Origin: an uncultured Nitrososphaerota archaeon
GTDB lineage: Archaea > Thermoproteota > Nitrososphaeria > Nitrososphaerales > CADDZS01
Length of the DNA stretch: 64,000 nucleotides
NCBI GenBank assembly: GCA_963799845.1
Contig: CAWCYI010000004.1
Span: forward strand, 1,632,001-1,696,000
Reading direction: 5' to 3'
Both the position numbers and the translations under genes were made by a program. A model generated the notes under the pieces. The model did no database searches, was not told the DNA's origin, and saw only the letters and a program-made list of their open reading frames with translations. Of this stretch, positions 13,403-31,800 are shown in pieces; position 1 is the first letter of the stretch, and the number at the start of each line of letters is the position of its first letter.

Positions 13403-15473
13403 TTGAGTCAATTTAGGTTGGGATTTGACATCGGCGGAACTTTCACAGATCTTATAGCGATAAGGGAAGACACGGGAGAGATAACGGTAGTAAAATGCCC
13501 TACCACTCCCGACGACCCATCGCGTGGTGTAATAAGCGGATTGTCTTCTCTGTTTGAATCACTGAGTATCTCGGGAGGTGATTTGAGTATTGCAGTACAC
13601 TCTACAACGCTTGTTACGAACACAGTGATCGAACGAAAAGGGGCGAAGACAGCACTCCTGACCACTAAGGGATTCAAGGATGTTCTCGAGATCGGCAGGG
13701 AAAATAGGATCACGGTCTACGACATTTTCGAAGAAAAGCTCAAGCCGCTGATCCCGAGACGTATGCGAAAGGAAGTCAACGAGCGAGTTCTCTACGATGG
13801 AACTATTTCCAGAAAACTGGATCCGACTCAGATCGAAAATCTCAGCTAAGAATCTCAAAGCAAATTCTGTGGAATCTATCGCGATTTCTCTACTTCATTC
13901 TTACGCGAATCCGAAAAATGAGAAAGTCGTCAGGCAGATCGTTTCAAAAATCGTGCCGAATGTCAAGATCTCTATTTCTTCAGATATACTGCCCGAGTGG
14001 CGGGAGTACGAGCGAACTTCTACGACGGTGATAAATGCATACACTCAACCCCGAACTGCAAATTACATGCGAGTAATAGAATCTACCCTCAGGAGGCTTG
14101 GTTTCGCCGGGCGACTTTTCATAATGCAGTCTTCCGGCGGGCTTTCGACCGTCGATGCGGCATCAACTTTTCCAGTGAGGATAATCGAATCAGGCCCGGC
14201 TGCAGGGGCGCTAGCCGCGACTTACCTCGGGACGCTTGCAGAGACGCAAAACATGATTTCGTTTGACATGGGCGGAACTACCGCTAAATGTTGTCTGATA
14301 ATTCGCGGTGAGCCGAGAGTCACGAATGATTTCGAAGTTGCAGGCTACATGTACCTCAAGGGAAGTGGTTATCCGGTTCGGATCCCGACAATTGATCTTT
14401 TGGAAATCGGGGCAGGAGGAGGGAGCGTAGCACATTTTGAGCACGGCCTTCTAAAAGTTGGCCCCGAAAGCGCGGGTGCGGTTCCAGGGCCTGCATGCTA
14501 TCCCAATGGCGGATCAGAGCCGACAGTGACTGATGCCGATCTTGCCATGGGACTTCTAAATCCGGATTATTTCCTTGGCGGCGAAATAAGATTGGACAAA
14601 TCGAGATCTAAAGCGGTCATCGAAGAAAAAATTGCTTCAAAGCTGGGAGTGAGTGTAGAGGAGGCTGCGATGGGTATTCACGAGGTAGTCAACGCAAACA
14701 TGTCAAGAGCAATGAGAATTATCTCCGTTGAAAGAGGGCAAGATCCCGCGCTCCTTTCAATTGTGGCTTTTGGCGGGGCGGGTCCAGTTCACTCCACTAG
14801 ACTTGCACATCTTTTAAAGATCCGGAAGACGATAGTCCCACTCGCAGCTGGCGCAACCTCGGCTCTGGGACTTTTGGTTGCAGACATGAAATTTGATTTT
14901 GTTCGAACCCTGTTAGTCAGGTTGGACGAGGTTGAGGGGAAGAAAATTAGGGATCTCTATGATTCGATGAAAACAGAAGCTGACAAGATGCTTTCTGAAA
15001 CTCAGTACGGCCGTCGATACCTAAGAGCAGTGGATGTGAGATACGCGGGTCAGGCCTTCGAGCTTTCAGTACCTTTCGGAGAAGGATTCGATAACTACGA
15101 TTTGATCGAGTTGAAGAAAAAGTTCTCGGAACTATATCGCGCGAGATACGGATATACGAGTGACGATCCGATTGAGTGCGTAAACTGGAGACTGGTTGCC
15201 ATCGGAGAGGTGCCCAAAGTTTCGCTGGAGAAGAGGAACAACCGAGAAGCGGGCACTCACGATCCTCAACTCGCGATAAAGGGAAAAAGGGATGTGTGGT
15301 TCCCAGAATCGAATGGATCTGTGAAAGCAACGATCTACGACAGGTACAAATTGGTTGAAGGAAATTCCTTCGATGGACCCGCGATCATTGAAGAAAAAGA
15401 ATCCACATGTGTAATTTTGCCGGGTCAAAAGGTGATCGTAGATGCTTATTCGAACTTGGTAATCGAATCCTGA
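13403..15473 (+). CDS. Hydantoinase/oxoprolinase subunit A (frameshifted)
   Basis: [51 protein letters not shown]. Confidence 0.93.
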
Positions 15474-23134: not shown

Positions 23135-24227
23135 TTAGCCCCGCATCCTCTTTCCATCGGGGTCGTAGTACCTGAGCGGTACTATCTTTGCCGTTCGATC
23201 GTCTATCGTGACCTCGCTTCCGTTTTTCGCGTACTCGCTCTTGAGCCATGCCCACGCGAGATTTTTTCCCACCGTCAAACCCCTGAACGCGTACACGGTC
23301 TCCCCTGCAATCTCGCCTCCTGCTCTAACTGGCCGTTTCTCGTGTAACAATGAATCTCCCTCCACTTCAAGCGCTACGAGCTTTTTCCGGCCCCTTTTCC
23401 TTGATTTCTAGGAGAGCTTCCCTTCCGATGAAATCTCGCTTGTCAAACGAAACCCATCGTTCCAGCCCGCACTCGAAGGGATTATTCTCGGAGGTCACTT
23501 CGTACCCGTAGAAGATGTAGCCCTTTTCGAACCGCAGCGAGTCCAGCGCGTCGAAGCCGTACGGGAGCGCTCCATACTTTTTTCCTGCCTCGAAGATAAC
23601 GTTCCAGGCATCGACGGTGTCTTCGGCACCGAAGTAGCACTCGTAACCCAGCTCGCCGGAAAATCCCACGCGCGCGATCAACGCGGAGACGCCGCCGAGC
23701 TTGCCGGTTGAAAAGTGGAAGAATTTTAGAGCGCTGACGTTTCCGTCGTACAGCTCCTGCAACAGCTCCCTCGATCTGGGGCCCTGCACGGAGATCATGC
23801 CGAGGCTTGGGCTGATGTCGGTCAGATAGATGTCCCGATCCTCGACGTGATCCTGGAGCCACTTCAGAGTCTTGTACCTCATGATAGAGGATGTAACGAT
23901 CCGAAAGTGATCTTCTGAAATCCTCCACACAGTCAGGTCGTCCATTATTCCGCCCCGCTCGTTGCACAGCGTCGTGTACATCAGCTGGCTGTCCGAGAGT
24001 TTGCTCGCGTCGTTTGCCGCGAGTCTCTGGAGGTATTCCAGCGCGTCCCTTCCATTGACGTCGATCCTTCCCATCAGCGAGGTGTCCATCATCCCCACTC
24101 TTTCCCTCACGGCCCGATGCTCTTCCTCGACGCTCCTGTAATGAGCCGGCATTCGATAACCTGCCGAAGTCGTCAACATCTCAGCGCCGAGAGTGACGTG
24201 GACGCCGTAGAGAGGAGTGAATTTCAT
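23135..24227 (-). CDS. GcvT-family aminomethyltransferase/folate-binding protein (frameshift near 23380)
   Basis: KFTPLY, EEHRAVRE, RVGFSGELGYE, DSLRFEKGY, YYDPDGKRMRG. Confidence 0.9.
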
Positions 24228-24229
24228 GC

Positions 24230-24496
24230 ATGGAGATTTTTGTCGGGAACTATGTAAGAGTTCATCCGGTACCAGAAGGAGTTGTGTTCCTAACTTTTGG
24301 TATTCCTTACATGCTGCTTTCGCCGCTCATGCAGGGAATAACCCCGGCCGCTTCGTTCGTTCTCGCGAGAGCAGAATTTCTTGACGGATTTCAGATCGCT
24401 CTAATCATACTTGCGATAATCAATTCGGCTGCTATTATTCCATCTTTGGTGAGAGGGAAGACGGCAAGTGTTGAGATGAAAGCTGAATCTGTATAA
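24230..24496 (+). pseudogene. Probable C-terminal fragment of an MFS-type transporter
   Basis: FLDGFQIALIILAIINSAAIIPSLVRG resembles the last TM helix of DHA2 MFS proteins; no N-terminal part is present. Confidence 0.4.
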
Positions 24497-24564
24497 TAAT
24501 TCGTTGGCCTCGTTTCAAAGCATATAAAACGGCTTCAGGGAAGCCCGTCCTGAGACCACCTGTA

Positions 24565-25842
24565 TTGGCGTCCGATTTTCTGGCAAACAACCTGTTCGTT
24601 CTGATAGCTGCACTCCTTGTCTTCACGATGACCGGATCAGTCGGTCTGCTAGAGGTCGGCGAGCTCGGCGAGGAGTTTTCTCACGTCAGCCTGCTGAAGG
24701 TCATGCTCATAACTGGAATCGGATTTTTCGTTATGGCAATCGTCGGATTCAACACGGCCTTTGCGCCGACGGTCGGCGGGATAATTGGGGCGCCGCTCTA
24801 CGGGCCGGGGTTTTTGCTCGGGGGCGCGTCGAATGCCACGGCCGTGTTTTGGTCGATGACATCGCAGTACTTTGGAACCGGACTTTCGCTCGGGACGTAC
24901 TTTTTCTTCGAGACGGCGTTCGCAACGGTGACGCTGGCCCTTGTTGGAGTGGTGGTGTTGAAGAAGGTGAAGCTTGAAGCGTTCGCGATATTTGCGGTTG
25001 TTTATTTTCTCATCATCTGGAACCTGCCGGCTGCGTGGATTTGGAACCCCACGGGATGGCTTTACCAGCTTGGGATGAGGGATTTCGCCGGAGGACTCGT
25101 CGTGCACGGAGCGGCGGGTGCGGCTGGGCTCGGGATACTCGTGCAGCTGTGGATGGAAGAAAAGAAGGCCGGGTTGAAGCAGAGCGCGGTCGTTCCGATC
25201 AATGTCAGTCCCAACTGGCTCACGCTGTCAATCGTTCTGCTCTGGATGGGGTGGTTCGGGTTCAATCCGGGAAGCGTACTCGCGTTCGACTCTTCGACGA
25301 TCACGGTTGTCCTCACTACTTTTCTCTGCGCGGCTTCGAGCTTCTTGTCGCTGATGCTCGTTACCTACTGGAAGACGCGCGAAAATCCGGGATTGATCAA
25401 TATGTCAAACGGCGTCTTGATGGGTTTGATCGTGATAACTCCGATTGCTGGGTTTGTCAGCCCGGCGAGCGCGATCCTGCTTGGAATTATTTCGGCGCCC
25501 ATCTATTACGGAGCGGAAGTGTGGTTTGCGAAGAGAAAGTGGTTTTCCGATCCGGTTGGGCTGATGCCTGGACATCTCACCGGTGGGCTGTTTGGAGTTT
25601 TGACGATTGGATTTTTCTCGCAGAACGTGTTTTCATCGGCTTCGGGAAACCCGACGATCCCGGACGGGATATTGTTTGGAGGCGGGACGGCAGCTCTTGA
25701 CCAGCTTGGGATCGAAGCTTTTGGCATTATAGTCGTGGTCGCATTTGTCTTCGTTGTGTCGCTGGTGACGATGAAGATCGTGAGCACAGCTCTCAGAGGA
25801 ATACTCGTCGCGCCGAAGGTCTCGAAGAAAGTTGAAGGATGA
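24565..25842 (+). CDS. amt: Ammonium transporter (Amt family)
   Basis: DFAGGLVVHGAAG, LWMGWFGFNPGS, VITPIAGFV, PGHLTGG. Confidence 0.95.
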   Translation: MASDFLANNLFVLIAALLVFTMTGSVGLLEVGELGEEFSHVSLLKVMLITGIGFFVMAIVGFNTAFAPTVGGIIGAPLYGPGFLLGGASNATAVFWSMTSQYFGTGLSLGTYFFFETAFATVTLALVGVVVLKKVKLEAFAIFAVVYFLIIWNLPAAWIWNPTGWLYQLGMRDFAGGLVVHGAAGAAGLGILVQLWMEEKKAGLKQSAVVPINVSPNWLTLSIVLLWMGWFGFNPGSVLAFDSSTITVVLTTFLCAASSFLSLMLVTYWKTRENPGLINMSNGVLMGLIVITPIAGFVSPASAILLGIISAPIYYGAEVWFAKRKWFSDPVGLMPGHLTGGLFGVLTIGFFSQNVFSSASGNPTIPDGILFGGGTAALDQLGIEAFGIIVVVAFVFVVSLVTMKIVSTALRGILVAPKVSKKVEG

Positions 25843-25876
25843 GCTAAAATATTGAACGTGTGCGAGATATCTGCAT

Positions 25877-26323
25877 ATGGAATTTTGTTCAAGCTGCGGG
25901 CGAGTGGTTCAGCCTGATCTCCCTTACTGCCCGTACTGCGGCGCGAGTTTGAGAAACTCGAGCTACTCCTCCCGCCAGCCGTACCAGACTGTGGGGACCT
26001 ATTACAAACGACAGGGGAAGAAGCCTTGGGTCGCGGCGGGGCTGGCCCTTGTACTGGGACTTTTTGGGCTGTGGGGAATAGGGCATCTCTACGCGGGAAA
26101 GTTTGCGCGGGGTATCGGGCTCCTTTTTACTGGACTCGTTATCGGGGGACTATTCTGGTTCAGCGTTATACTCACGGTCATCCTCGTCGGATACGTGGGG
26201 ATCGTGCTATTCGGGCTGTTCTTTGTGGGCGGATGGCTCTGGCAGGCGTTTGATGCGTACAATGCCGCGCACGAGTATAACGAACTACATGCGACGGTGT
26301 TCCAGAGAAATAATTTCTTTTGA
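25877..26323 (+). CDS. Zinc-ribbon plus TM2-like membrane protein
   Basis: FCSSCG..YCPYCG; KKPWVAAGLALVLGLFGLWGIGHLYAGK. Confidence 0.8.
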   Translation: MEFCSSCGRVVQPDLPYCPYCGASLRNSSYSSRQPYQTVGTYYKRQGKKPWVAAGLALVLGLFGLWGIGHLYAGKFARGIGLLFTGLVIGGLFWFSVILTVILVGYVGIVLFGLFFVGGWLWQAFDAYNAAHEYNELHATVFQRNNFF

Positions 26324-26362
26324 GTTACAAACTACAGCTTGTTTTGAGCTCTGATTGAGTGA

Positions 26363-26376
26363 CCGATAGCTGAAAC
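26363..26376 (+). repeat. Left target-site duplication CCGATAGCTGAAAC (14 bp)
   Basis: Identical direct copy at 35448-35461; each copy abuts a TIR. Confidence 0.95.
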
Positions 26377-26583
26377 AAAAAAGGTGCCCCCTCCACACCG
26401 ACGGCGACACACGCCGTCGAACGCACCCTAAATTGCTCCCTAACCTGACCTAATACGCCACTAAGGAGTTCAACCCTTACCTTTTTCCTTTTTGCACGCC
26501 AGTGCAAAGTGACGGCACCTACGGTGCCAAGTGACATTCATACGCCTAAAATACCGACACTACCGGCACTTTTTGTTGAAGTG
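26377..26583 (+). repeat. Left terminal inverted repeat (207 bp)
   Basis: AAAAAAGGTGCCCCCTCCACACCG...TTTTGTTGAAGTG is the exact reverse complement of 35241-35447, compared base by base. Confidence 0.97.
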
Positions 26584-26727
26584 CTTACGGCAATTGGCGA
26601 CACACGCCAACTGTTAGGGGTTGCCTTCGGCAATCTAGAGTTTGCGAGACGTGTGAGTGTCTTAGACCAGCAATATTGTTGCGCCACATGCTCGGTCATT
26701 GGATTCTCGTAACGCGCTCCAAGGACA

Positions 26728-26928
26728 TCACCTTTGCCCAGAAAGGCTCGCAGACTCTTCTACCTGTATCAAAATTATTTTCTTGATTCGTTCCTTTGCA
26801 AGCATGTCCTCAAATTGGGAAATTATCTTACGTCCATAACCGTGTCTCCTATAAGGCTCGAATACTTCCAATGAGCGCAATTGTATTATCTGCTCATTGA
26901 GTTTGCCAAAGACGCCATTGCCTTGCAC
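26728..26928 (-). pseudogene. Degraded GNAT acetyltransferase fragment
   Basis: LRSLEVFEPYRRHGYGRKII is GNAT motif A; the upstream frames contain several stops. Confidence 0.7.
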
Positions 26929-27298
26929 CAGCTTGGTTTAATTTTTAGCGACAAGTTCGAGCAGCATTATCTTACTTTCTGCCTTAATTCCATCCTTCTA
27001 TCGATCTCGCAAACCCTGTCATATTGGATAGGATATCTTTGATGGGAATAATTTGGCCTTTCATCGAAAACTATTTTCTTAGATTTTAGTCAAATCCAAC
27101 AAATGACCCTCTAGAACACCGATTTCGGAGTCTCAGAAATTAGATAGACTTGAAAAAATGACTAATCTGTCTTAAATGATCAAAAAATACATTAGGAACA
27201 TATAGGTGCTTTACTCCTGTTCTGAAAGTAGTGCTGCATGATGAGGTATCAGTTGGCAACAGACTCGAAATTAATCGTCCGTTGCCGTCAATGAACTA

Positions 27299-28423
27299 AC
27301 CTGGCCGACATAAATTATTAGACTGAAAGGGCCACAGACCTAGACATTCTCATTTTTGGCCAACTTCCCTTCCTATCTCAGGTTGTATGTCTCGATTACA
27401 GGCACCGAAGGAGATTGTTGAAGAGGCTTATAGAGAGGAGAGGGACGCAAACGTAAGCAAGAGGATATTCCTCGTTCTGAAGGTCAAGTACGAGGGTGTC
27501 CCGGCGTCGCACGTAGCAAGGGAAGTTCACCGGCACAAATCATGGACGACACCGTGGCTTAGACGTTTCGAGAAAGATGGGCTAGAAGGACTCAAGACGA
27601 TGGAAAGGAGCGGGAGACCTCCGAAGCTCGATCACAACAAGTTCATTGCGGTGAAGAGGAAGGTCGTGAAGAACGAATGCGGCTGGACCGTGAAGGAGGT
27701 CAGGGAGATGATCCGCAAGGAAGCAGACGTGGCATACACTGAGAGACACATCTACAGGTTGATGCAGAAGTGGGGAGTGAGAGCAATTGTCCCTGACAAG
27801 AGGTTACTTCACAAGGCTTCCCTCGAAGAGAGGCTCGAATTTAAAAAAGGACCGCAAGACTCCTCAGGAATATCCCGGAAGGCTTCACCGTAGCATCCGA
27901 AGACGAATCAATCTTCGTCCAGAACATAGAAACCAAAAGGGTGTGGGCGGTCAAAGGGATTCGACCGATTCGGATTGTGTCAGGCTCGCACGGCAACACC
28001 GTGGTGTTTGGAGCGATCAGCCTGGACGGGACACAAATCTTCAGGCAGTACGAGAAATTCAATGGCGAGACATTCCTCGACTACCTGAAGAAGGTGCACA
28101 GGAAGTTTGGATCACTCTATCTCTTCCTTGACAAAGCAAGGCAACACCACAAAACCAGGATCGTAACTGATTATTTGGGTAAGAACAGGAAGACTCTCAG
28201 AGTCAGATGGATCCCGACAGCTTCGCCAGAGTTCAACATGATGGAGGAGTGTTGGCGCGAGGGTGAGAAGGATTCTCTCAAGGCTTCCAACCTTTCCGAC
28301 GTCATTGAAAGAACTGAAATCAATCCTGGCAGAATACTATCGAACGCGAAGGTTTTGCTCGCATCTTGACATGAAGAAATTCCTTCTGACCAACAGGTGT
28401 CTATGAACTTATGTCGGCCAGGT
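27299..28423 (+). mobile_element. IS630-family insertion sequence
   Basis: 25-bp imperfect IRs ACCTGGCCGACATAAATTATTAGAC / GTCTATGAACTTATGTCGGCCAGGT; TA duplication at 27297-27298 and 28424-28425. Confidence 0.95.
27387..28406 (+). CDS. IS630 transposase (HTH orfA plus DDE orfB joined by a -1 frameshift)
   Basis: WLRRFEKDGLEGL...RSGRPPKL; slippery TTTAAAAAAG at about 27840; catalytic EDES, FLDKA, PEFNMMEECW; a further indel near 28270. Confidence 0.92.
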
Positions 28424-28654
28424 TAAACAGAAACCTTGTGCACCGCCAACCAATTAATGGCGGACATTGTAATTGAACCAAAACCTCTCGGACAGATTAT
28501 CGTGTCATAGGTCATCTTTCCTATCGGAAAGATTCCGGCGGTTTCTCTTTTTGAAGAAAAGTTGTGCGTGGTTTCTACCACTAGGTTTGTGTCTTGAACC
28601 TTGATGAATGCACTCTCGTCTAAAATTAGCGGATTCATTCTACGTTATGTAGGC

Positions 28655-28678
28655 GGGGAGAATATATCTCCTTTCGGC
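28655..28678 (-). promoter_or_regulatory. Putative archaeal BRE/TATA promoter of the cas1 remnant
   Basis: Minus strand GAAAGGAGATATATT lies about 25 nt upstream of the ATG at 28638. Confidence 0.4.
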
Positions 28679-28844
28679 CTCTCTTTTTCTGCCGTGTCCG
28701 AGGGGGGTGGGTGGTGCCTAGGTGAGTTAGTTAGTGCCTAACAGCAGCTATGGCAATAGCAGAACCTGCTAAACACTAAGACAACCGCCCTAAGTGTGAC
28801 GCGTCCTCGGTCGCCAAAGCGAACCTGAAGGCATGATGTTTTTG

Positions 28845-31800
28845 CTACTCTTGATTCCATGGCATTACCATCTTGAAGACTTCGACTTCGGTACTTACGT
28901 TCCTCAGTGACTTCAATCCCAAACTTTGAAGCGGCAAGTCGAACTTGTTTTGTAGATGATCGTAAACCTGACGAGTAAGGCAGACTCCACCATGTTCGGC
29001 AAGTGACTCGATCCTTGATGCCACGTTGACGGCATCTCCTGATATGTCTCCATCTTCAGATTCTACGACATCCCCAACGTGAACCCCTACTCTTAATTGG
29101 ATTCTTTGATCTTCAGACAATGAGATGTTGAATTCTCTCGTTGCTCTCTGAATGTCGTAAGCACATCTGGTTGCCTCTAGAGCGCTTGGAAACTCTACGA
29201 GGAAACCATCTCCAATTGTTTTGATTTCCCTGCCATTGTGTCTTTTGAAAATTGGTCTTAGTAATTTCCTTTGTTCACTCACCAGAGCGAGCGAGAGTGT
29301 TTCGTTTTGCTGCCCTAAGGCAGTGAAACCTACCATATCTGTGAACATAATCGCCGCCAATTTTCGTTCGATACTTTTCACTTCGACGTTTTGAGGTTCA
29401 AATTCGTAAGATCTGTACTTTCCTAGTTCGTCAACAAAGAGTATTCTAGGTTTGAGTTCAAAGTTCCCTTTGTTTTTTGCAACGAAGTTAAGAAAGATTT
29501 CGTGAGCCTTGAGGTAATCCAGTCTCTTCCCCTTGAGATCAACTGCGATAGAGTTTCCGCCTTCGAGAAAATAATGTTCATTATTTTCGCCTTCCGCCTC
29601 AAAAGCGTTAGAAGGAGCAATGTTATCTAGTTTCATAAGTAATGCAGGAGTCTTGCCAACATTTGCAATGTCAATGCCTAGTTTAATGGAAGAACCAACA
29701 TTGGTAGATTTTGTGGAAAGAGAAATGTTCCCCGTAAGATTCGCAACTTCGAACCTTTCGAGTCCAACTGCTTGGTCGCGAGTGAAATTGACGGGACTAG
29801 CAGAAACTGTTGGACTCTGAGAAAGTGCCTCCATTGGAGTGATTAAGAGTTCTCTGTTTTCTCTCGCAGTTTTGAGATGCTTCAAAACTTCTGTCCTCTT
29901 CTTCTCATAACCAATGTCTCCGTATCTTCTGGCTGACAACTCAAGGTGCTTTTCGGCTAGATGATACATCTGTGTTTTCTTCTGAGGATCAATTTCTCGC
30001 TCTGCTCCCGCAAGATATGCTAAAGCATCGAAGAGTGCCTCAGTTGCTCTTGTCCAATCCGACGCTATTTCAAAGCCTGCTTCTTCGTAGTATCTTGATG
30101 CTACACCTAGTTTGGTTTTGATCTCAGAATACAGACTAACATCGCTTGATTTCTTGAACCTTGTGCCTGCCTCAAAAGCTTCGCAGATAGAGGAATTAGC
30201 AAGGCACGACAGGACAAAACTTTGCTTCATGATATTCTCCTTCGCTTTCAGAAAAATCTCTGAGGCTTTATGATAGATTTCTGACGAAGACTTGACCTCC
30301 GCTTCCTTCATTGCTGCCCAAGCATCGCAAGAGAGTGCTAGAGCATCAAGTTCCATCCTGTCTTCTTCGCTTGCATCTTTTTCTAGTTGCCTCAGAGTTT
30401 CAGATGCTGAGCGATATCTCGTCATACTTTGTTTTACCTCGCCATTTTTGTCGAGAACTCTTGCTTCGTCAAGTTCTTTTCTTGCTAGGCAGTATTTGCC
30501 TCTAGATTCAGAGAGCTTCGCCCATTCCTTTAGTTCACTTTCTTGTGGAGGAGAGAGCTTTGCAAGACTCAATGCTTCTTGCTTGGCTTGCTCGAACAAC
30601 CCGTAAGCTTCTCCGAACGAAGATGATGCCTCAGTGTTGCTTTCCTTTCTGCTGAATCCTTCTGCTCCTTCCATCTTTGAAAATGCAAGGTAATGCTTGG
30701 TTAATTGTCTGAAGGTCTCAGTTTTATCTAAAATGCCCGCTGCTTCTATGAGTCTCTCGGAAGCAGATTCGTATTTTTCATCGCTATGAAGAATCCTTGC
30801 CTCTTCTATTTTTGACCACGCTTGCATGTACAGAGAAAGGTCAGCGAATGATTTCTTTAGGCTCTTTTGATTTGCCGACGCTTTCAGGTACTCCTCCGAT
30901 GCCTTGACGAATGCATTGGATGACTTGGAATACTCTTGGATAGAGTCGTAGAGCTTCGCGGTGTTCCAGGCGATTGGAGCTGAGGTACGCTAGTAGATTA
31001 GCCTGGGAGTAATAGTTTGACGCTTCATCATACGCCTTGATTGCCTCAATGCAGTCGTCCCTTCGCTGGGAGAGATTGTAGAGCTTTGTCAAAGTGTTGC
31101 CTAGAGATTCGCATGCTCTTCCTACATTCTGAAGATACACCGTTGATATTGGCAAACTGTTCAATGCTTTTGCCTTGATATCCTTGGATTTTTTCAAATC
31201 CGACACGCTCTGCTTCAGAAGAGTTTCTTTTTCCTGCTGGCTCGTCTTTTCCTCTGCAAGTTTAGCCTCGACAAGAGCATGCATTGAGTAGAGCACGCCC
31301 GTATTCCAAGAATCTGACCCAGCCAAGGTTTCAAATCTTTCCAGCTGTCTCGAAGTCAAGTCAGCCGCCTCCGAAAGCAGTCTTTCTCTCTCGCCTTTTG
31401 AGCTCATCAACTCTGCTTTCAGAAGCAGGGCTTGTCCAAGATACGGTCCCACGAAACCTAAGGAGTAAAGGGATTGGAATTCTAAGCCCGTTCTTCCGAA
31501 CTCTATCGCCTTGTCAAGATATTGCATTTTTTCAGAAATGGTGGTCGAATCTATCGACAACAAATTTAGTACCCGCGAGCAAAATGAGTAAGATTCTTCG
31601 AGGTCGCCTGTGCGCAGTACTTTGAGACGCTCTATCGCCCTCAAGAGAGCTTCAGTCGATTTTTCAAGCATCACTTTCCTTTCCTCGGCAACGTCCAAAG
31701 AATGAGAAGCCCAGTGGAGACTGTAGCCCAAGTAGTGGTACTGTTTGCCGAGGAGGTTGGTGTCCCTTATCTTCTCTGATTCTGCAAGAGCTTTTCCAAG

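Follow-up and report, generated by a model that had tools for sequence, protein, structure and literature searches.

The window analysed here is a 64,000-nucleotide stretch of a single archaeal contig (G000:C4:1632001-1696000); positions below refer to it unless a contig is named. Between 27140 and 28638, on the minus strand, lie the remains of a cas1 gene, split by an insertion sequence (IS) of the IS630 family. The features of this locus, read in the direction of the interrupted gene, are the following.

28660..28669, minus strand: candidate TATA-like box (AGATATATTC on the minus strand), found by eye; its centre lies about 27 nt upstream of the ATG.
28426..28638, minus strand: Cas1 remnant, casposase-type by affinity, codons 1-71 (MNPLILDES...HKVSV), most of the N-terminal domain; identified as an ORF and by paralog, relative and profile matches.
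28423..28425, minus strand: TAA stop of the 71-aa ORF, made of the TA duplication and the terminal IS base; read directly.
27299..28423, plus strand: IS630-family insertion sequence, 1125 bp, one of 18 copies in the assembly; inverted ends, HTH_33/HTH_32 and DDE_3 domains, NF033545.
27387..27893, plus strand: IS transposase ORF1, 168 aa, with the HTH domains.
27941..28369, plus strand: IS transposase ORF2, 142 aa, with DDE_3, in the -1 frame.
Left 27297..27298 and right 28424-28425, no strand: TA target-site duplication, from direct reading and inverted-end analysis.
27296..27298, minus strand: in-frame TAG at the reconstructed joint; the corresponding codon is Tyr (TAT) in the same-genus relative G004.
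27143..27295, minus strand: continuation of the Cas1 remnant, 51 codons (FIDGNGRLISSLLP...FFKSI), comprising the end of the N-terminal domain, the linker and a degenerate first helix.

The 71-aa ORF, which spans 28423-28638 (minus strand) with its stop included, ends at the IS end. When the IS and one copy of TA (27299-28425) are excised by script, the frame reads ...HKVSV-TAG-FIDGNGRLISSLLP..., that is, 71 codons, a stop and 51 further codons, about 123 in total, with one in-frame TAG at the joint. The continuation piece (27143-27295) itself ends at a stop codon, 27140-27142. The original prediction had described a cas1 frame split by an IS630, with a 71-aa ORF stopping at the IS end and the frame continuing after excision, and each of these elements is present in the sequence. 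Upstream of the ATG, general archaeal promoter geometry makes 28660-28669 a possible TATA-like box. The sole contig from one RNA run (242 nt, 0.06 share) lies inside the IS and says nothing on expression of the stub.

The IS at 27299-28423 has the features by which the IS630 family is recognised: a DDE_3 transposase with an N-terminal HTH, a TA duplication, and short terminal inverted repeats, here 27-nt inverted ends at 27297-27323 and 28399-28425 (flanking TA included) that are 89% complementary. The NCBIfam model for IS630-family transposases, NF033545, matches the two IS ORFs at E 4e-22 and 1.2e-17, both below the model's whole-protein cut-off because the transposase gene is split over two frames. 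Since the ORF2 frame starts open exactly at an A6G run (27843-27849), the transposase is probably made by a -1 frameshift, for which this run is the likely site.

Across the whole assembly, all 18 copies of the element are 99.9-100% identical to one another. This near-identity indicates that the expansion is a recent burst and that the insertion in the window is young. The other 17 copies are 99.9% identical to the window copy and each is one base shorter, without one T at 28274. The extra T shifts the frame of the last ~45 transposase codons relative to those copies, and could be a real defect or an assembly error; IS contigs from three sequencing runs have the shorter form, without the extra base at 28273/4, and these contigs collapse all copies. 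The right junction between IS and flank is seen in read contigs of X1 and X2, while the empty site (27298 joined to 28426) occurs in no read contig and 27108-27208 is without cover.

Target sites are uniform. TA is found on both sides of all 17 complete copies, and on the visible side of the 18th, which a contig end truncates. Immediately left of the left TA stands C or T in 18/18 flanks and A or G in 0/18; immediately right of the right TA stands A or G in 16/17. The element thus follows a preference YTA...TAR (YTAR, CTAG-like), obeyed at 34 of the 35 flank positions seen, and the plus-strand C at 27296 agrees with the YTA part of it.

What was interrupted is harder to recognise. Searches of Pfam (PF01867), NCBIfam and PDB sequences give no Cas1 match for either piece of the remnant, the one Pfam hit being End_beta_barrel at E 0.086. 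Longer relatives of the 71 aa were sought among 5.8 billion proteins by a word-indexed search, which produced 4 candidates, none of which scored, and a metagenome contig scan with a two-row alignment matched its pattern at 253 stretches, none confirmed. Recognition comes from closer comparisons. A six-frame search of the whole genome aligns the 71 aa to the N-terminus of a 328-aa Cas1 ORF at C4:236433 (37% identity, E 7.4e-5), which is itself a full match to PF01867 (E 1.7e-44). Residues 1-90 of this paralog align straight across the IS-excised joint at 34% identity (E 8e-11 in a 1.9-kb database), bearing out the claim that the joined frame encodes a Cas1 N-terminus. The 71-aa piece is also 55% identical to a fragment in the same-genus relative (G004:C49; E 5.9e-14). 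Finally, among 319 six-frame pieces from 24000-31000, it is matched at E 4e-11 (positions 1-67) by a profile built from 29 PolB-side Cas1 proteins (PolB, family B DNA polymerase); the second piece (27143-27295) alone reaches E 1.3 against this profile, at positions 71-89 of 395. Of the HMM check that had been proposed, the PF01867 part therefore fails on both pieces and the lineage-specific part succeeds; because the lineage-specific profile matches, there is in substance a Cas1 hit.

How much of the gene is left can also be read from these comparisons. In the six-frame profile scan of 24000-31000, only the two pieces matched and nothing matched past profile position 89 of 395, while MAFFT aligns the remnant tail to about residue 125 with weak, degenerate similarity. 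The N-terminal beta-rich domain of the Cas1 superfamily (PF01867) is thus recognisable, by way of the 29-protein profile and the paralog; the C-terminal alpha-helical catalytic domain, with its metal-binding Glu-His-Glu, is not there, the catalytic two thirds being absent from 24000-31000. Judged by its sequence, 27140-28638 is a remnant, not a functional Cas1 member; it has no plausible activity and can no longer integrate DNA.

The stub sits among ordinary chromosomal genes: an ammonium transporter, a zinc-ribbon membrane protein, a 66-aa GNAT fragment, a cyclase and metabolic genes. The GNAT acetyltransferase fragment (26731-26928, minus strand; PF00583 positions 54-102 of 116, E 2.7e-5) immediately follows the Cas1 stub on its downstream side, a second gene remnant within one 2.5-kb gap. 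The cyclase, a TPR-like plus adenylate/guanylate cyclase protein (28848-30827), adjoins the stub and has 21 matches in the host genome and many in relatives. A synteny or empty-site comparison through this gene was rejected: the cyclases form a large paralogous family, the relatives match only the catalytic domain, and orthology is not established. Two other genes in the window look irregular. Hydantoinase/oxoprolinase A (13403-15470, plus strand) is represented by two overlapping ORFs, an N-terminal region of 148 aa and the rest of 558 aa, a split that may be a frameshift. The catalytic region of alanyl-tRNA synthetase (40387-41721, minus strand) is a 445-aa ORF only (PF01411 positions 2-434 of 552), and the next ORF downstream is a GNAT acetyltransferase; either this gene is truncated or split, or its remainder lies in another frame.

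Eight PolB queries find no PolB in the window at E <= 0.1 (in the genome, PF03175 matches only at C4:199565), and there is no match in the window to casposon accessory genes or polymerases. In 25800-29000 the only convincing inverted repeat is that of the IS, and no casposon TIRs are seen. Of the features that define casposases, the stub therefore shows neither an element with a family B DNA polymerase nor bounding by TIRs and a target-site duplication. Because the window has no PolB, casposon TIR or accessory gene, the word casposon is applied to its origin on sequence affinity alone.

That affinity was measured against Cas1 proteins of both kinds. A one-genome-per-species pattern scan gave 388 confirmed relatives, and the best 80 of the 388 Cas1 loci were kept. 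CRISPR-like arrays accompany 23 of these 80 (simple k-mer array scan) and a flanking PolB homolog 25 (Pfam and tblastn); the two never occur together (0/80). From 84 Cas1 ORFs, 19 were dropped (one identical duplicate and 18 outside 280-500 aa), and the window fragment (with X at the stop) and the G004 fragment were added. The casposase side then comprises 29 rows (22 PolB-linked and 7 unlabelled) and the CRISPR side 36; the latter set is no curated cross-section of Cas1 diversity but a by-product of a pattern search whose seeds were casposase-like. The window fragment scores 54.6 bits against the casposase-side profile (50.3 bits without same-family rows) and 18.0 bits against the CRISPR-side profile. 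With blastp it matches 23 of the 29 casposase-side rows, 22 at E <= 7.6e-7 and one at E 0.003, all ranked above every CRISPR-side match; on the CRISPR side the best E is 0.009, and 10 of 36 rows are matched at E <= 10. The MNPL start, which the original prediction had given for thaumarchaeal casposases, is borne out: it is found in 14/29 casposase-side rows and 0/36 CRISPR-side rows, with start codons chosen automatically.

Phylogenetic trees place the stub on the same side. A quick mixture-model tree puts both fragments in a 31-row set (SH-aLRT 89) with all 22 PolB-linked and the 7 unlabelled rows and zero CRISPR-linked rows, and pairs the window and G004 fragments at 99. In a careful maximum-likelihood tree (LG+G4, alignment columns 139-490), the same 31 rows lie on one side of a 95/94 branch, with an archaeal subset of 30 rows at 86/85. 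Here the fragments fall outside a 25-row HTH-bearing clade (99/98), which includes the host genome's other Cas1 genes, and attach weakly (44/0) to three Nitrosarchaeum rows that lack the HTH. A tree that keeps the fragments out of the group of 29 casposase-side rows, on its CRISPR side, is not rejected by an AU test (p-AU 0.656); that alternative is 6.25 log-likelihood units better than the quick free tree. The stub thus groups with PolB-linked rather than CRISPR-linked Cas1s by profile scores, pairwise ranking and the 95/94 branch, the AU test allowing a place just outside, and the trees put it at or near the base of the PolB-linked group, without secure nesting.

The rest of the genome fits this affinity. 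No cas2 is found above the cut-off anywhere in the 4.6-Mb assembly (86.7% complete), and the k-mer scan that found arrays in 23/80 control loci finds no CRISPR array in it; two array-scan matches on C6 were rejected as plain tandem repeats. The sole Cas4-family match lies at C4:215597, about 1.44 Mb from the window. The statement that no cas2, cas4 or CRISPR array lies near the stub holds. The genome does contain one pPolB casposon and two further Cas1 relics. The casposon, at C4:195300-206200 (L007 5324-16148), outside the window, is apparently complete: unannotated small ORFs are followed by a 711-aa PolB of the protein-primed type (PF03175), three small ORFs and, 1.4 kb downstream of the PolB, a 388-aa Cas1 with a C-terminal HTH, with an IS630 copy at the right edge. 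This pPolB and Cas1 layout is that of thaumarchaeal casposons as PMC6563490 describes it. A search for its TIRs gave only 16-27-nt pairs of 73-89% complementarity, none convincing. In having both an HTH on its casposase and a polymerase of the pPolB type, the element mixes what the literature places in families 2 and 1. A C-terminal helix-turn-helix of 60-70 residues is given for family 2 in PMC6977970, and family 1 is described as being without it in PMC8464041.

The first of the two relics is the 328-aa Cas1 (C4:236433-237546; L009 8433-9546), whose HTH-coding end lies just downstream in another frame. No PolB was found within 8-10 kb of it. On either side of the locus, at C4:234065 and C4:239858, lie two small ORFs in direct orientation that are 59% identical to each other. 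The second, C6:1748293-1748904 (L010), is a C-terminal casposase half that runs from residue ~171 to the end, HTH included, and shares 48% identity with the 328-aa copy; the frames upstream of it are full of stops, and 1.2 kb from it, at the contig end, there is an IS630 copy. A C-terminal HTH is present in the genome's Cas1 paralogs. The 388-aa and 328-aa proteins match structure 6OPM, the M. mazei family 2 casposase (PMC6977970, which gives its catalytic Glu-His-Glu as E162, H232 and E247), at E 6.8e-46 and 1.1e-37, with CRISPR Cas1 next best at ~1e-17 to 4e-20.

Taken together, the profile scores, the pairwise ranking, the side of the tree and a genome without CRISPR or cas2 support a casposase-type affinity for the stub. 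The original prediction had preferred a casposase over an adaptation Cas1, and this preference stands, with the AU result as its qualification.

The closest relative of the stub adds a view of its past. The G004 copy reads ...PLYFIDGNGRMYSSLLP..., with Tyr (TAT) at the codon where the window has TAG, and with one 1-base frame change it is readable as ~140 aa. Over 90 shared codons the two fragments differ with pN 0.33 and pS 0.72 (omega ~0.18), and their identity by codon position is 63%, 73% and 38%; they diverged as coding sequence under purifying selection. The flanks share no homology, and the G004 flanking genes have their best matches in the host genome elsewhere, at 41-46% identity. Because flank homology is lacking, the two fragments are not copies of a single ancient pseudogene common to both genomes. 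In each, the match to Cas1 ends at about profile position 124, and their tails after residue ~90 are poorly conserved, the canonical QYEAYLD motif being present only in G004. The G004 contig ends 185 bp further on, so the truncation there is not secure. The idea, formed by eye, that the G004 copy continues in another frame was dropped, as BLAST and a profile scan find nothing past position 124. In a family-level search, matches were found in 3/13 genomes and members of the fragment lineage in 2/13.

We consider it very probable that the locus is the stub of a decayed casposase gene, its opening ~123 codons, and that this gene lost its catalytic part, acquired a TAG and was then entered by an IS630. 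In this scheme, a casposase gene would have been cut back to about residue 125, with the catalytic E-H-E domain and any C-terminal HTH among the losses. Tyr codon 72 would then have become TAG, creating a CTAA site on the plus strand, and the currently active IS630 would have inserted at the TA of this site, duplicating it. We infer this order, including truncation before the IS, as well as the membership of the parent gene in a complete casposon. Two points of the order can be argued from the sequence. First, the TAG was probably already there when the IS arrived, because the pre-insertion CTAA fits YTAR, whereas a Tyr codon would require the TA to be preceded by A or G, as it is in none of the 18 left flanks. 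Second, gene sequence lies on both sides of the window IS, which therefore did not cause the truncation. The original prediction had inferred that the gene was dead before the IS landed; the loss of the catalytic domain, the near-identity of the IS copies and the fit of the TAG site, where a Tyr codon would not fit, all agree with it.

Other explanations have to be weighed. The stub and the G004 fragment could be all that has so far been sampled of an archaeal casposase lineage of its own, one outside the HTH-bearing clade and insecurely attached to the HTH-less, pPolB-linked Nitrosarchaeum clade, or else of a formerly selected, stand-alone Cas1 N-terminal protein of ~125-140 aa. We regard this two-sided proposal as unlikely, if somewhat less so than the alternatives that follow.

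The second half of that proposal can be put more definitely: the frame of ~125-140 aa would be a stand-alone Cas1 N-terminal-domain protein under selection, a domesticated stub, truncated in the ancestor of the host and G004 and recently inactivated in both. The shared end of the Cas1 match near profile position 124, the low omega over 90 codons and the single 1-base frame change that separates the G004 copy from ~140 aa are what such a history would leave. However, the selection signal is equally expected if both genes were full-length casposases until recently, and the poorly conserved tails past residue ~90, with QYEAYLD in G004 only, are not what a selected protein of this length would suggest. 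Furthermore, both copies are broken, members occur in just 2 of the 13 family genomes and in none of the stretches of the metagenome scan, the flanks share no homology, and the truncation in G004 is insecure, its contig ending 185 bp on. We judge this history improbable.

It is about equally improbable that the remnant derives from the adaptation Cas1 of a CRISPR-Cas locus since lost by the lineage, with no casposon origin. The weak CRISPR-side match of 18.0 bits, an AU test that does not force the fragment inside the PolB-linked clade, and the lack of PolB or TIR remains beside the stub all leave some room for such a source. Yet the casposase-side profile scores 36 bits higher, the 23 top pairwise matches are all casposase-side, and the fragment lies on the PolB-linked side of the 95/94 branch; moreover, the assembly (86.7% complete) contains no array or cas2, and the genome's other Cas1 genes are all casposase-like.

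Less probable still is that the window stub and the fragment at C6:1748293-1748904 are halves of one gene, parted by an IS-mediated rearrangement. The two are roughly complementary (residues 1-~125 and 171-end), and there is the IS630 copy 1.2 kb from the C6 fragment, at the contig end. But residues ~125-170 are missing from both pieces, and the window IS has gene sequence on both its sides. The pieces also have different affinities: that on C6 has 48% identity with the 328-aa paralog, whose HTH it also has, whereas that in the window is 34% identical to it and falls outside the HTH-bearing clade (99/98) that holds this paralog. Chance resemblance to Cas1, to which one might turn since no curated library (Pfam, NCBIfam, PDB) recognises the ORF, can be dismissed almost entirely in view of the profile match (E 4e-11), the match to the relative (E 5.9e-14) and an alignment that stays in frame across the excised IS.

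Read as a decayed casposase, the stub is a data point on casposon turnover in soil archaea that resemble ammonia oxidisers. A single assembly, which has no CRISPR system, contains a casposase linked to a pPolB, a solo copy with a frameshift and two stubs, one C-terminal and this N-terminal one. Short and divergent remnants of the Cas1 N-terminus escape curated profiles such as those of Pfam and NCBIfam; therefore, censuses of 'solo Cas1' genes and of casposon decay undercount them.

Finally, the locus can be set against the known systems that it resembles. With the IS630 / Tc1-mariner family, the IS shares the TA duplication, the short inverted ends and an HTH and DDE_3 transposase matching NF033545; it differs in having the transposase in two frames that meet at the A6G run, where frameshifting is probable, and the window copy differs further by the single base added towards the 3′ end of its transposase gene. 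CRISPR-associated Cas1 belongs to the same superfamily as the stub and gives a weak profile match, but that score is far under the casposase side, no CRISPR-linked row lies on the stub's side of the 95/94 branch, and the genome has neither cas2 nor an array. Compared with casposases (6OPM, and the thaumarchaeal casposons as described in PMC6563490), the stub keeps only ~123 of ~390 codons, its catalytic Glu-His-Glu domain and HTH are gone, and no PolB, TIR or casposon target duplication lies beside it. What it shares with them is an N-terminal domain like that of the PolB-linked proteins and an MNPL-type start, in a host genome that carries a pPolB and Cas1 element, has no CRISPR, and encodes Cas1 paralogs that match 6OPM far better than any CRISPR Cas1.
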